From assembly GCA_963677745.1 (NCBI GenBank), contig OY782391.1, forward strand, positions 1,024,001-1,088,000: DNA of 64,000 bases, read 5' to 3'. A model generated the notes under the pieces. The model did not search any database and was not told the DNA's origin. It saw only the letters and a program-made list of their open reading frames with translations. Source of the stretch: Candidatus Altimarinota bacterium. Its GTDB lineage: Bacteria > Patescibacteriota > Gracilibacteria > UBA1369. The translations under genes were made by a program, and so were the position numbers. This document shows, one piece after another, positions 26,314-30,549 of this stretch (position 1 is its first letter; each line of letters opens with the position of its first letter).

Positions 26314-27006
26314 TCAGATATTTCCGTCAATCCAAAATTCCATTTTCAGATAGGGACCGCTGGGTGTCAGACAGAGGCAGAATATTCCGGCCTGCCCGAG
26401 CAGGTTTTGCAAACAAGCCATCATTGACGGGAGATTTCTGACATAGCCGGTGGTTTTGATTTTATCGGCAGTGCGTTGCTTGAGTCTCAGTCGGGTCCGT
26501 TTAGTCATTATACTGCGGGTGATGGCCAGAAAATAGGTTTGGGCCAAATTTTCGTCATCTATATCGGGAGGCACATTCACCTTGAATTCTGTGGTCGCAA
26601 CCGATTCAATCCTTTTTTCCGAATTGGAGTCGTATTCATACCAGGGTTTTCCGATGTTGGCATTTTCTTCGATCAGATTGTTAATGCCCAGTACCAGCGT
26701 ACGGTAATCCAGTCTGGCCGTGGACAGATCTGTCGGCTGCCCGGCCTCTTCTGCAGTCCTTGATGATTCTTTCTCCGCTCCGTCGAGCAGTTCAAAAAAA
26801 ACTTCCTCGTTTTTCGTAATCAGTTTTAAAGAGATACCGTCCAGGTAACATAGCTCTTCCCGAAAATTCAACTTCAACCGGTATTTTTGGCCGTTTTTGC
26901 TGTTTAAGACCCACAATTCTTTGGAAGGATCATTCTTCAACAGGGGGGTCAGAGTCAAGCCGTTGATTCCTTTGGAGGCGCTCCCTCCCATCCGATCCAG
27001 GCTCAT
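26314..27006 (-). CDS. Hypothetical protein
   Basis: Long ORF, probable ATG at 27006 (MSLDRM); divergent from the ncRNA candidates. Confidence 0.65.
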   Translation of the reverse strand: MSLDRMGGSASKGINGLTLTPLLKNDPSKELWVLNSKNGQKYRLKLNFREELCYLDGISLKLITKNEEVFFELLDGAEKESSRTAEEAGQPTDLSTARLDYRTLVLGINNLIEENANIGKPWYEYDSNSEKRIESVATTEFKVNVPPDIDDENLAQTYFLAITRSIMTKRTRLRLKQRTADKIKTTGYVRNLPSMMACLQNLLGQAGIFCLCLTPSGPYLKMEFWIDGNI

Positions 27007-27085
27007 GATGAACGTTAAAAATATTACTGAAAATACTATAACCCGAAAGTACAAAACAATTCAAGAAGGTGTACACAGCAGTAAT

Positions 27086-27113
27086 TTGCCTAAAAGAAAA
27101 TATTTGATAAGAT
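27086..27113 (+). promoter_or_regulatory. Sigma70-like promoter for RNA candidate 1
   Basis: TTGCCT-16 nt-TAAGAT, just before the first stem. Confidence 0.5.
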
Positions 27114-27117
27114 ACTT

Positions 27118-27510
27118 TGAAGCTTGGATTTAGGAAAAACAAAAACAAAACATACCTCCTACCAATTTGCTTCACCCGCCCCGCATTATGCCGGGCAACC
27201 CGACGGAGCTAGAAACCGTCGCGACAGAGGGAAGCCTCCAAAACAAAAATGCTCCTTAAAAAATAATTTACCCGAGTCAGAAGAAGTCATAAAAACTTCT
27301 GCCAACATCTCTTCCGACGCCAAACTTAAAAGATTGTATCTTTGCAGGGTTCCATGGAACACTCTCGGACAATCATCAATAGTTCACAGGGAAGAAAGTT
27401 TACGGCAACAAGTTAAAGAAAGCTTCCAACACTCATCCCGGTAAATTATTCCAGGGCAAACAGACACCTCATGGAACCCGACATCTAAAGTCGGGGTATT
27501 TCCATGTTTT
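27118..27510 (+). ncRNA. Candidate large structured ncRNA 1 (~390 nt), family unknown
   Basis: Many complementary segments, including the 11-bp AATAATTTACC/GGTAAATTATT; A-rich loops; terminal hairpin followed by TTTT. Confidence 0.55.
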
Positions 27511-27578
27511 GACAAGAAGTCAAAAATCTTACAAAGTATATTTCACAACCATGACAGAGGGCTGTCCAGACTCGTTTC

Positions 27579-27606
27579 TTGATTAATAAATTCTATCAGT
27601 TATAAT
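27579..27606 (+). promoter_or_regulatory. Sigma70-like promoter for RNA candidate 2
   Basis: TTGATT-16 nt-TATAAT. Confidence 0.7.
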
Positions 27607-27611
27607 GTTAT

Positions 27612-28072
27612 GATTTTTCCAATAAAGAAAAATCGAAACCAAAGATCTTTCACAAAAAGAATTAGACCTATCGCCCCCCGGGGGCGGTAACGTGAAGATT
27701 GATGAGGCGTCAAAGCGGTTGCCTTTAAAACAAAAATAAAAAGGAAAAACAACGCCCTAGAACGTTTTGGCATCTCTCAATCTTTGCTGGGCGCTGGATA
27801 CTTGTCTCCGACCGGATTAGTATCCGTTCAAAGTTACTCGGTGGGGTACTTTAGCCTTTATGGCTTCTACCTTCACTACCGGCCTTTACTGGTTGGCGGG
27901 TGGTCCGTGGCAGGACTGGAAAAAACAGCCAAAGCCTAGGCATAGATTAGGACTGGTCAATCCACAAATCTCGAAAACAAAAACAAAATTGCTAGAGTTC
28001 TCACCAATATTTTATTTTTGAGGACCCATTAGCACAAGAGATTTGGAACCCCTACTTCGGTAGGGGTTTTTT
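27612..28072 (+). ncRNA. Candidate large structured ncRNA 2 (~460 nt), family unknown
   Basis: Lies between a promoter and a terminator, contains no ORF of 60 aa or more, and has dense nested stems with G.U pairs polarised to the plus strand. Confidence 0.7.
28047..28072 (+). terminator. Intrinsic terminator with cUUCGg loop
   Basis: AACCCCTAC-TTCG-GTAGGGG-TTTTTT; U-tract on the plus strand only. Confidence 0.85.
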
Positions 28073-28570
28073 AATGTAGGAAGTTGACTGGGTTATATGC
28101 AGATCTGTGTTTATTACCTCCGATATCGCCTTATCCAGGTATATCTCGCCCACCGCTTCCGGATATTTCTGACCGGGGACGTCTTTGTAATAGGCGGGTC
28201 TGGTCCATTTTTTAATTTTAGCTTTAAAATCTGCAATATCCAACACGCCCCGATTGTCGCTGCACATCAGCATCACAATAATCCAGCGGCGATATTCAAA
28301 AATGATCCGTTGGGGATCATCGATCGGCAGTTTTTCATATTCCCTGGAGCGGTCCGCCAGATAATTTAGGAGGTTCATCATGTAGGAATAGGCCTCCCTG
28401 GTGGGCTCCATATACAGGACTCGCAGGGGGTTTTTGAGATCTTTGCTGGAATCGGCAACATATGTAAATAAATGGTCATTACAGATGTCTTTGGGAGGCA
28501 GGGAAGCTTTTATTACTGGAAGATCAGCCACTTTTGGGTTTTGCTCATATCCGGACACTGGCAATTTCAT
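28052..28570 (-). CDS. Hypothetical protein
   Basis: 172-aa ORF with an upstream minus-strand TTGACA-17-TACCCT promoter; its stop codon lies inside the plus-strand terminator. Confidence 0.7.
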   Translation of the reverse strand: MKLPVSGYEQNPKVADLPVIKASLPPKDICNDHLFTYVADSSKDLKNPLRVLYMEPTREAYSYMMNLLNYLADRSREYEKLPIDDPQRIIFEYRRWIIVMLMCSDNRGVLDIADFKAKIKKWTRPAYYKDVPGQKYPEAVGEIYLDKAISEVINTDLHITQSTSYIKKPLPK

Positions 28571-28698: not shown

Positions 28699-30549
28699 AT
28701 GCTCGACCTGCCAAAAGACAATCCCAGGGAACTGCCCAGTGCCGAATTTGCTCCGGAAATTGAGCGTGAGGCCCAAATGGCAGTTTTGAGAAGTCAGCAG
28801 ATTGATGAGCGAATTCCGGTTCAGGGGTTTACGCTTGACGCCATGGAATCCAAAGATTTGGATGATGCCATTTGGCTTGAGCGGTCCAACGGAGAATGGA
28901 GAGTGTTGGTCACTATCAGCGACGTGGACGCCCTTGTTCCAATGGGCTCTCTGCTCGATCGCGAGGCTGTTACAAGGGTAACCAGTCATTATTTTCCTGA
29001 GAGAAGCAGGGACGGTAAGGTAGAGCCAAAATATGTTATCCCAATGCTTCCCACCATTCTTTCGGAAAAGCACCTTAGCCTTCAGGAAGGGGAGTCCCGT
29101 CTAACACTGACGGTTGAAATGCTTCTGACGGGAGATTTCCGGCCGATTTCGGCAGACATAAAACGTACCCGTCTTGTTTCCGCCAAAAAGCTGGGACTGA
29201 GCGAATATGGCGATCGTAAAATTATTGGAGATCCCGGCCTGCCTCTGCGGGATTATTATCATATGGCCAAGGGGTTAAACCACAAACGCTGGTCCGACCC
29301 CGGTTGGGCCTACCAGGAATTAAAGAACGGAATCAGCACCAATGAAGACGGTATGGTGAGGGAAGGAAGCCTGTCTGCTGCCAGTCTGATCGTACAGGAA
29401 TTCATGGTCTTGACCAATCAGGCCGTGGCAGAACTACTCAACAGAGAAAATTTAGCGGCTCCCTTTCGAAATCATTTGCCTGCCAGAAACTCTCCCCCGA
29501 CCAAAGCACAGATCAGGGCGGAAATTGAAAGAAACAGCGATTATCGCAAGCTGGTTGATGATTTACGGGCAACTTATCAGAAACTTTTGGGAAGCGCTTT
29601 GTACGAAGCTGCTCCGGCCGGTCATTTCGGCCTGGGGATACCTGCCTATACGCATTTTACTTCTCCCATCCGCCGCTATGCCGACCTGGTCATTCATCGT
29701 ATTGTAAAAGCCCACTTATCCGGAGCAAAGTCTCCTTATACTCCGGAAGAAATTCAGCAGCTTTGTCTTTATCTGAATAAGCGCAACCGTGACCTGGCCA
29801 CGATCAGGGCTCATCAGGAAAGAAGACATTCATTAAAAAACTACCGCCAATTCGGGCACCTGCTGCCCAAGGAAAAAGAAGACGGGCCGGATTATATGGA
29901 AAGCTTACTGACATATTTAAGAGACAATCGCATTGGCAATGCGTTCTTTGAGTACTCCTGCAGCGAAGGGTTCCTTATTCAACTTTCCTGCAAGGCCAGT
30001 GTGCGCTTTCAACGCATCAGACACGTGGTGGAAGTCACGGCCAGAGCTGCCTTACAGGACGTGAAAAACGAGGCTGCCCGTTTGTTACTGGAGAAAATCC
30101 AGGAATTGATGGAGGCAAACCCGCCGGAACAAAAGAAAAAAGATTTGAAGTATCAAAAATCGCCGGAATCTCCCGAAACCGGACCGGGTGTGGTTGCACG
30201 CCTCTATCAATACTGCGAAGAGCATGGTTTTCCGGTTCCCAGTATTTATTATGAATCCTGGAATGGCGGTCTCTTTTATAACAAAGAAACAGGGGAATAT
30301 TCGGTTGCCCGGGAACCGGGATGTGAAAAACCTCCGGATGGAGAAGAAATGGATCAAAATCTGGTTCCCATAGTTTGTCATTGCGATATCAGCGCATCTC
30401 TGACTATGGATGGATTTGGACGAAACCGCCAGACTGCCAAGGAAGAAGCCGCCAGGAAAATGCTGGACTATTTGCAGTCGGGCCAGCCCATTCCCAGGCA
30501 GTCTATTGTTCCACCGGCTCCTCCTTCCCGGCCGAAAAAAAACGATTAA
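28699..30549 (+). CDS. RNB-domain (RNase II/R family) exoribonuclease with two C-terminal dsRBD-like domains
   Basis: DAMESKDLDDA, QEFMVLTN and HFGLG..YTHFTSPIRRYADL motifs; C-terminal ..VKNEAARLLL and GFGRNRQTAKEEAARKML. Confidence 0.88.
   Translation: MLDLPKDNPRELPSAEFAPEIEREAQMAVLRSQQIDERIPVQGFTLDAMESKDLDDAIWLERSNGEWRVLVTISDVDALVPMGSLLDREAVTRVTSHYFPERSRDGKVEPKYVIPMLPTILSEKHLSLQEGESRLTLTVEMLLTGDFRPISADIKRTRLVSAKKLGLSEYGDRKIIGDPGLPLRDYYHMAKGLNHKRWSDPGWAYQELKNGISTNEDGMVREGSLSAASLIVQEFMVLTNQAVAELLNRENLAAPFRNHLPARNSPPTKAQIRAEIERNSDYRKLVDDLRATYQKLLGSALYEAAPAGHFGLGIPAYTHFTSPIRRYADLVIHRIVKAHLSGAKSPYTPEEIQQLCLYLNKRNRDLATIRAHQERRHSLKNYRQFGHLLPKEKEDGPDYMESLLTYLRDNRIGNAFFEYSCSEGFLIQLSCKASVRFQRIRHVVEVTARAALQDVKNEAARLLLEKIQELMEANPPEQKKKDLKYQKSPESPETGPGVVARLYQYCEEHGFPVPSIYYESWNGGLFYNKETGEYSVAREPGCEKPPDGEEMDQNLVPIVCHCDISASLTMDGFGRNRQTAKEEAARKMLDYLQSGQPIPRQSIVPPAPPSRPKKND

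Follow-up and report, generated by a model that had tools for sequence, protein, structure and literature searches.

A 64,000-nucleotide (nt) stretch of a Candidatus Altimarinota genome (contig OY782391.1, positions 1,024,001 to 1,088,000; the whole stretch is called the window below, and positions refer to it unless stated otherwise) contains at 27086-27525 an element that, judged from its sequence, is a conserved non-protein-coding RNA element and makes up the upstream half of a 1-kb locus. The downstream half encodes a second structured RNA, which we call RNA-B. On balance, and with modest confidence, we favor the interpretation that the upstream element (unit 1) is a separately transcribed plus-strand non-coding RNA (ncRNA) of ~385-390 nt, which would run from a promoter, P1, to a terminator-like hairpin, T1, and would be a companion or split-off domain of RNA-B. 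Support comes from the conservation of the element, covariation in its helices, the lack of a coding signal, the orthology of P1, and the presence elsewhere of its core, module M, embedded within RNA-B itself. A first-pass annotation, made from the letters alone, had proposed a structured RNA of about this length with promoter- and terminator-like ends; every string that it listed is found where it had been placed, and conservation now bears the proposal out.

A conserved locus of two tandem units

The source genome is one contig of 1.34 Mb, labeled G000 in this analysis, and from sequence the host is a bacterium of the Peribacteria/Peregrinibacteria group of the Candidate Phyla Radiation (CPR). 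The two units lie in tandem across a 997-nt spacer (27055-28051) that is free of open reading frames (ORFs) and flanked by two minus-strand ORFs:

27086-27525: unit 1
~27613-28072, plus strand: unit 2, RNA-B, a structured RNA of ~460 nt, from promoter P3 to a canonical terminator
28049-28072, plus strand: RNA-B terminator, CCCCTAC-TTCG-GTAGGGG-T6

Region 27037-28072 is 83.5% identical (over 1059 alignment columns) to the same-genus genome G002, as against 67-73% for the flanking coding sequences, and BLAST finds matches to the spacer in 26 of 41 related genomes. Conserved and variable blocks alternate along the spacer in an alignment of seven genomes (A1), with P1 and the RNA start conserved, 27160-27300 variable and with large indels, and 27301-27403 forming a conserved core; 3' of the core come a variable stretch, a covarying hairpin, the nearly invariant 27511-27612, and the very conserved RNA with its terminator. 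Unit 1 is carried by nine genomes in six genera. BLAST matched nine of 36 family genomes, one of them at the promoter only, and model R1 (module M) supplied the remainder.

Promoter P1 and the 5' part of unit 1

27086-27113, plus strand: promoter P1, TTGCCT (27086-91), a 16-nt spacer and TG-n-TAAGAT (27108-13), an extended -10
27118-27174, plus strand: 5'-terminal hairpin, TGAAGC (27118-23) with GCTTCA (27169-74), in the minimum free energy (MFE) fold
27124-27/27162-65 and 27131-35/27157-61, plus strand: inner helices of that hairpin, TTGG/CCAA and TAGGA/TCCTA
27201-27221, plus strand: hairpin CGACGG (27201-06) with CCGTCG (27216-21), loop AGCTAGAAA with conserved CTAGAA, in the MFE fold

The promoter TTGCCT-16-TAAGAT named by the first-pass annotation is in place and is kept in all nine aligned genomes with a spacer of varying length; a TG stands two bases ahead of the -10, and the transcript is predicted to start near 27119-27120. 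The P1 motif, AATTTGC..TTGATAnnAT, occurs a single time in the 1.34-Mb genome. Immediately downstream, the annotated 5' stem and its 21-nt A/C-rich loop, AAAACAAAAACAAAACATACC (27136-27156), were also found where expected, and compensatory changes in relatives keep the pairing: the outer stem is present in every genome despite large indels, and a stem search run without a shuffle control finds it replaced by GAAAC/GTTTC in G048, by TGAAATTC/GAATTTCA in G023 and by TGATTTTCAA/TTGAAAATCA in G005. The CGACGG/CCGTCG hairpin is maintained in the same manner, with GGCAGG/CTTGCC in G001, CAGG/CCTG in G014 and GCAGG/CCTGC in G043 around a loop that stays CTAGAA or CTAGAT; it is missing in G024, G003 and G017. 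A further small hairpin that had been suggested, GAGG (27227-30) with CCTC (27235-38), exists as a pair of strings in this genome but is not conserved.

Module M, the conserved core of unit 1

27262-27450, plus strand: genus-specific domain closed by AATAATTTACC (27262-72) and GGTAAATTATT (27440-50), holding the CAGAAG hairpin and module M
27278-27301, plus strand: hairpin CAGAAG (27278-83) with CTTCTG (27296-301); AAGAAG/CTTCTT in G002
27301-27403, plus strand: module M, the ~100-nt conserved core of unit 1, three helices
27310-15/27390-95, plus strand: outer helix of M, TCTTCC/GGAAGA, nested
27332-36/27370-74, plus strand: inner helix of M, GATTG/CAATC, nested
27346-27363, plus strand: hairpin of M, loop CATG

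The covariation of module M is well above that of controls. On alignment A3 (MAFFT, nine genomes) paired cells make up 85%, shuffles giving 75.2%, and covariation scores 0.278 versus 0.145, the former a value that none of 500 shuffles reached; slid controls were all lower. On alignment A5, which comprises 12 sequences fitted to a covariance model and is thereby biased toward structure, the proportion is 89.2% versus 69.4%, with 14 of 18 pairs altered on both sides. Model R1 scores 72-109 bits in the nine genomes, and the conserved unpaired runs of the module are ATCTTTGC and CTCG.

Most of the helices annotated in this domain are upheld by these data. TCTTCC/GGAAGA and CAGAAG/CTTCTG retain pairing through compensatory changes, and GATTGT (27332-37) with ACAATC (27369-74) is present as described, its core GATTG/CAATC covarying in relatives. 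The 11-base-pair (bp) closing helix is where the annotation put it and belongs to the MFE fold, but it is shared only by G000 and, as a shifted 9-bp version, G002 (two of nine genomes), being absent from the same-genus G001 and six further aligned genomes. The proposed pseudoknot is not supported: the strings AAACTT (27322-27) and AAGTTT (27396-401) exist, but the helix is broken in G002, and because all conserved helices are nested, a pseudoknot is not called for.

The T1 hairpin, the inter-unit block and promoter P3

27470-27510, plus strand: T1, terminator-like hairpin, CATGGAA (27470-76), CCCGAC (27477-82) with GTCGGG (27490-95), TTCCATG (27500-06), then TTTT
27511-27575, no strand assigned: inter-unit block, palindrome TTGAC-N5-GTCAA (27511-27525) plus CAAAGTATATTT
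27579-27606, plus strand: promoter P3 (for RNA-B), TTGATT-16-TATAAT, the best promoter match of the region, 10/12

The terminal hairpin CATGGAA-CCCGAC/GTCGGG-TTCCATG-TTTT was correctly located by the first-pass annotation and has compensatory changes in relatives (CCCAAC/GTTGGG, CCCAAT/ATTGGG and CCCGAA/TTCGGG). A hairpin with a U-rich tract stands at this position in all genomes with unit 1, and the counterpart in G004, CCTCA/TGAGG, is followed by a clean T6 and thus is a canonical terminator. Both hexamers of P3 are conserved, the -10 variants TATAAT, TATGAT, TACAAT and TATACT all retaining T at position 1, A at position 2 and T at position 6, while the spacer varies. Judged from sequence, P1 and P3 have a promoter-type pattern of fixed hexamers and variable spacer. 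Viewed as a sigma-70-type small RNA (sRNA) gene, unit 1 has a conserved promoter pattern and a covarying terminal hairpin, with a U-tract that is canonical only in G004.

The inter-unit block is nearly invariant in the nine unit-1 genomes and in G004, with variation in the 5-nt center of the palindrome. As a guess, 27511-27575 may serve P3 as an operator or UP-like element; alternatively, it may form an RNA hairpin following T1. The operator-like look of this palindrome and its near-invariant surroundings, together with the finding of no contigs over unit 1 in the two RNA runs, would also suit a purely DNA-level explanation, in which the conserved blocks are protein-binding sites regulating RNA-B or the divergent neighbor ORF246 and 27119-27505 gives rise to no stable RNA. 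We regard this as very improbable, since the compensatory changes in module M, T1 and the 5' hairpin are a signature of RNA and not of DNA sites, and since module M also occurs within the transcribed RNA-B of other genera.

Folding, strand and coding potential

The plus-strand RNA of 27115-27515 has a predicted folding energy of -100.5 kcal/mol (z = -3.34), which none of 100 shuffles matched, and its MFE structure includes the 5' stem, the CGACGG hairpin, the 11-bp helix and the terminal hairpin. The minus strand folds well too (z = -2.76, better than shuffles), and therefore folding energy by itself leaves the strand unfixed. This, and the undecided ratio of G-U to A-C appositions in module M on A3 (10:10), would be compatible with transcription of the minus strand into, for instance, an antisense RNA or a long structured leader related to ORF246. 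Such a transcript nevertheless has only a slim chance of being the correct explanation. The promoter-like site of ORF246 sits right at the start of that gene (27064 to 27035), the A5 count of 14:7 favors the plus strand, and the upstream genes differ in other genera where the RNA locus persists. Additionally, P1, T1 with its U-rich tract and orthology to RNA-B all indicate the plus strand; in RNA-B, G-U pairs outnumber A-C by 107 to 12, which fixes its strand as plus.

A 106-amino-acid ORF (27124-27444, plus strand) with a TTG start overlaps unit 1, and it, or a shorter one, might in principle be translated; A/C-rich runs like that at 27136-56 do precede or begin several ORFs elsewhere in the genome. 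The pattern of change is that of a non-coding sequence, however. Substitutions relative to G002 are distributed 34/29/26 over the three codon positions, with no third-position excess, and the frame is shifted by indels, seven in number and 1-3 nt long. In relatives the frame is closed; in G002 no stop-free stretch over the ORF exceeds 56 amino acids. Other genera have large indels within the ORF, and a Pfam scan of the region gave no match. On these grounds a protein-coding gene was rejected, a small protein being scarcely credible here, and the earlier designation of the element as an ncRNA agrees with the outcome.

RNA-B and its distribution

RNA-B has compensatory changes in 27 of 39 predicted pairs among 22 sequences. 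Within the order, 60 of 151 sampled genomes match a covariance model (R2) of its core, which holds an invariant GGTCCGTGGCAGGACTGGAAA hairpin; two matches in one genome are frequent, and tandem ones occur. By family, the matches amount to 21/22 (f1), 13/13 (f9), 16/21 (f17) and 4/10 (f4), with several families at zero and no RNA-B found in f6, f13 or f15. Of 151 genomes sampled phylum-wide, R2 matches G000 alone and none of the other 150, and the sole match in G000 is 27831-27946. The most conserved part of the spacer, searched as an exact pattern, retrieved 18 public loci, 14 of which hold RNA-B by nhmmer; these are labeled as 12 Candidatus Peregrinibacteria/Peribacteria metagenome-assembled genomes, one Gracilibacteria and one Altimarinota. 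A metagenome scan with the RNA-B pattern yielded 13 loci, of which 12 contain RNA-B by R2 and one also has module M upstream. Furthermore, two metatranscriptome runs contain short contigs resembling 27804-28020 and 27810-27965, a weak indication that RNA-B is expressed in relatives. Two DNA runs contain the whole stretch and may be where this DNA originated.

Relationship between unit 1 and RNA-B

By sequence, P1 and the single RNA-B promoter of other genera are orthologous. In G048, G006, HKST and G023, all of which have no second promoter, a P1-type motif precedes RNA-B by 75-229 nt, and genera without unit 1 have no promoter-like site ahead of RNA-B other than the P1-type one. The bases 3' of the P1 -10 resemble those in G048, and those 3' of the P3 -10 (GTTATGATTTTTCC / GTTATGAT...) resemble the bases after the single promoter in G018 and G023; because of these two resemblances, P1 and P3 look like descendants of one ancestral promoter with its 5' hairpin. 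We infer that P1 and the 5' hairpin of unit 1 go back to the 5' end of the RNA-B gene and its promoter, most simply through a tandem duplication that would have left a truncated upstream copy. In another family, copies of RNA-B occur in pairs 2.7 kb apart (G040:C2:49485-52307 and G063:C1:90609-93446); tandem duplication of the RNA-B gene thus recurs.

Module M provides a second connection between the units. Model R1 locates it solely beside or within RNA-B: in nine genomes and one metagenome contig it precedes the RNA-B core by ~530 nt, and weaker matches fall inside RNA-B in G018 (30.3 bits), G010 (25.8 bits) and G023 (22.9 bits), in each case in the variable apex of the long 5' hairpin. Helix ii covaries in these embedded matches (CTGTTCT/AGAACAG and TCTTTTCC/GGAAAAGA), and in the MFE folds of G010 and G023 the long helix of RNA-B encloses module M (z = -4.5 and -3.2). 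In a tree of RNA-B a single clade (support 0.985) unites the genomes that have M upstream, and the three with M inside are grouped (0.72), on a topology whose deeper nodes are weak and may be confused by paralogues. Unit 1 itself fails R2 and is hence an associate of the RNA-B family and not a member.

Taken together, these results suggest the following model as the likeliest. Module M is a three-helix domain that in three other genera is covalently inserted in the apex of the long 5' hairpin of RNA-B, and unit 1 would supply this domain in trans to the RNA-protein assembly built by RNA-B, so that the two would act together. Unit 1 would also bring an (AAAAC)n loop of the kind that RNA-B displays, and some read-through from P1 into RNA-B would be possible.

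One transcript or two

Several observations weigh against two separate transcripts, or against the link between them. P1 is a weak consensus match (8/12) and was not listed by the promoter scan, whose threshold was 9 of 12 consensus matches. In G000 the U-tract of T1 is interrupted, and T1 is not among the hits of the terminator scan, so that a single long P1-to-T2 transcript is possible. The strand signal within module M is weak, as described above, and for the three embedded matches of M a shortened calibration gives rough E-values of 2e-4 to 8e-3, only one of the three passing in the 151-genome search. The two RNA runs hold RNA-B-like contigs of relatives and none over unit 1, an absence of cover that is uninformative. 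Most RNA-B loci are without module M, which is therefore dispensable to RNA-B in those lineages.

Comparison of the two units in sequence also speaks against the link. Searching unit 1 against RNA-B with nhmmer in both directions gave no significant similarity beyond the A/C-rich AAAACAAAAAC linker, which is all that the RNA-B profile finds in unit 1 (E 0.02 to 8), and sequence-level paralogy was dropped accordingly; the proposed duplication therefore rests on the resemblance of the promoters and 5' ends. Shared k-mers are modestly above mononucleotide shuffles, mostly owing to the linker, and are suggestive without being significant; those outside the linker include CGTTCAA in five of seven genomes and ATCTTTG in four of seven. 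Nor was there intermolecular complementarity between unit 1 and RNA-B above shuffled background: by a crude method, the unrestricted duplex energy in G000 was -133.3 versus a shuffled mean of -133.5, and trans pairing of the two RNAs was rejected for this reason.

The alternative of one ~960-nt RNA, extending from P1 to 28072, would make unit 1 a leader or 5' extension of RNA-B particular to this lineage, with T1 a structural hairpin or partial attenuator and P3 an additional internal promoter. It has in its favor that P1 is the ancestral RNA-B promoter, that module M is covalently part of RNA-B in three genera, that T1 is weak in G000, and that 27511-27612 is conserved beyond expectation for simple spacer DNA. 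We nonetheless consider it unlikely, though a rival to be taken seriously. P3 bears the conservation signature of a working promoter along with its 10/12 match, the T1 position has a hairpin and U-rich tract in all unit-1 genomes with a canonical T6 in G004, and the 5' hairpin that follows P3 has as its orthologue, in genomes with one promoter, the hairpin at the start of the transcript. These features point instead to independent transcription of unit 1 from P1 and of RNA-B from P3.

Comparison with known RNA families

Searches used the 4227 models of Rfam 15, at the gathering threshold and at a permissive E<=10. Across the whole window only two tRNAs pass at gathering score. At E<=10 the interval 26900-28200 has five chance-level matches, none within 27086-27525, and 15 homologous loci gave only a tRNA and terminator-type sub-threshold matches; the statement of the first-pass annotation that it recognized no known family has thus withstood a search. 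No ncRNAs of Peregrinibacteria or Patescibacteria were found in the literature searched, and the terms SRP, non-coding, ncRNA and intergenic are all absent from the main-text passages covered of PMC4736985.

A divergent member of a described family missed by the models (signal recognition particle (SRP) RNA, 6S, tmRNA, RNase P, a CrcZ-like sponge or another Rfam family) might be suspected, as the genome is without an SRP RNA match and the loops are A-rich runs of the ARN type, resembling Hfq sponges. The probability of this is small, given that neither the locus nor its 15 homologues have a gathering-score or meaningful E<=10 match. Models of 6S RNA, tmRNA and RNase P RNA have no match at 27086-27525, and their counterparts sit elsewhere in G000 (genome coordinates): tmRNA at 701797-702237 (105.7 bits), RNase P RNA at 405247-405740 (170.5 bits), and a 6S-like match at 602254-602414 (41.1 bits, under the 46.4 cut-off). 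The RNase P RNA match covers 494 nt versus a 367-position model and the tmRNA match 441 nt versus 374; since these spans exceed the model lengths, they suggest insertions in both RNAs.

SRP RNA was considered as an identity for RNA-B and dropped, as no Ffh or FtsY partner is detectable. The SRP RNA models RF00169 and RF01854 have no match at E<=1 across the whole genome, the SRP_SPB and SRP54 domains were not found in G000, the D[TS]AGR motif is absent from its long ORFs, and tblastn with E. coli Ffh gave a best E of 0.12 in a region that is not an ORF. A fuzzy scan for SRP helix-8 motifs found nothing convincing. True SRP54 was found in none of 41 relatives, where P-loop matches of at most 23 bits occur, nor in 81 phylum genomes, and SRP_SPB was found in none of 61. 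All 14 controls were detected. The literature searched, and the passages covered of PMC10768705 and PMC10633639, make no statement on SRP in CPR. The undetected SRP system reflects either a striking loss throughout the phylum or a search that is blind to it.

An Hfq/Crc sponge of the CrcZ type was rejected as well, for no Hfq (PF17209) was detected and the CrcZ model scores 10.2 bits versus a cut-off of 95. The A-rich AAN runs lie at 27136-50 and near 27974-88. The AAAACAAAAAC motif occurs 14 times in G000 versus ~1 expected, 13 of the 14 on the plus strand, the copies in the window being 27136-27150 and 27974-27988; several copies lie in 5' leaders or form the first codons of ORFs (e.g., 16889, 173782, 761934 and 1003420 in genome coordinates).

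Three groups of known RNAs are useful for comparison. Orphan large structured bacterial ncRNAs such as OLE, GOLLD, ROOL, raiA and HEARO, all represented in Rfam, are like the present locus in being lineage-restricted, several hundred nt long and rich in covarying helices, with their own promoter and terminator, in being conserved above neighboring genes, and in having a function not evident from context. The present locus differs in having no model match, in its limitation to part of one CPR order and in consisting of two tandem units. Two-piece tmRNA and fragmented ribosomal RNA are examples of RNAs encoded in pieces, and module M is similarly within RNA-B in G010, G018 and G023 and a separate upstream unit elsewhere, where it has promoter-like and terminator-like signals of its own and, as in RNAs in pieces, would be transcribed separately. 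Unlike in those systems, no trans pairing was found between unit 1 and RNA-B, and M is wholly missing at most RNA-B loci. Paralogous sRNA pairs and protein-sponge RNAs include 6S-1/6S-2, CsrB/CsrC and CrcZ/CrcY. RNA-B resembles these in occurring in one or two copies per genome, with tandem duplicates, and resembles sponges in the repeated single-stranded A-rich (AAAAC)n loops between hairpins, which fit the ARN pattern; unlike for sponges, there is no Hfq in the genome, and the conserved, tertiary-looking structure of RNA-B exceeds what a sponge needs.

Genomic setting

26314-27054, minus strand: ORF246, 246 amino acids, no Pfam match
28052-28570, minus strand: ORF of 172 amino acids, no Pfam match

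No informative conserved gene neighborhood was found beyond close relatives, and a search for relatives through the 172-amino-acid neighbor found none. ORF246 is very fast-evolving: its protein identity is merely 24-32% across genomes in which the adjacent ncRNA DNA is at 73-83%. Just downstream of the RNA locus, 28699-30549 encodes an RNase II/R-family protein (RNB domain, weak C-terminal match to a double-stranded RNA-binding domain). In G043 an RNase II/R-family gene directly follows RNA-B, and this adjacency does not extend to more distant genera.

Implications

The families of module M and RNA-B are, from these searches, undescribed in Rfam 15 and in the literature searched. The unusual feature is that M is embedded, separate or absent depending on the genus; otherwise this is a lineage-restricted structured ncRNA like others. 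A bolder proposal, to which we attach a low probability, is that RNA-B with M constitutes a new class of large structured RNA, confined to part of one CPR order and split in this lineage, where the ~390-nt piece, made from its own promoter, would be reunited in trans with the same ribonucleoprotein. For a common partner, the A/C-rich loops that both units share offer the most promising lead. The conserved (AAAAC)n loops resemble the A/C-rich 5' leaders and first codons of mRNAs in this genome, and they may be a handle for a shared partner, perhaps a component of the translation machinery.

CPR genomes are strongly reduced, yet this 1-kb non-coding locus has been retained and evolves more slowly than the adjacent protein genes, which argues for an important, still unnamed RNA function. 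The locus offers a concrete new RNA family with models (R1 and R2) and defined promoters and terminators and, in the differing placement of one ~100-nt domain (embedded in some genera, separate or absent in others), a natural experiment in RNA architecture. Identification of the partner of RNA-B and module M would extend the small set of large bacterial RNAs whose roles are known and could illuminate how gene expression is managed in minimal cells.

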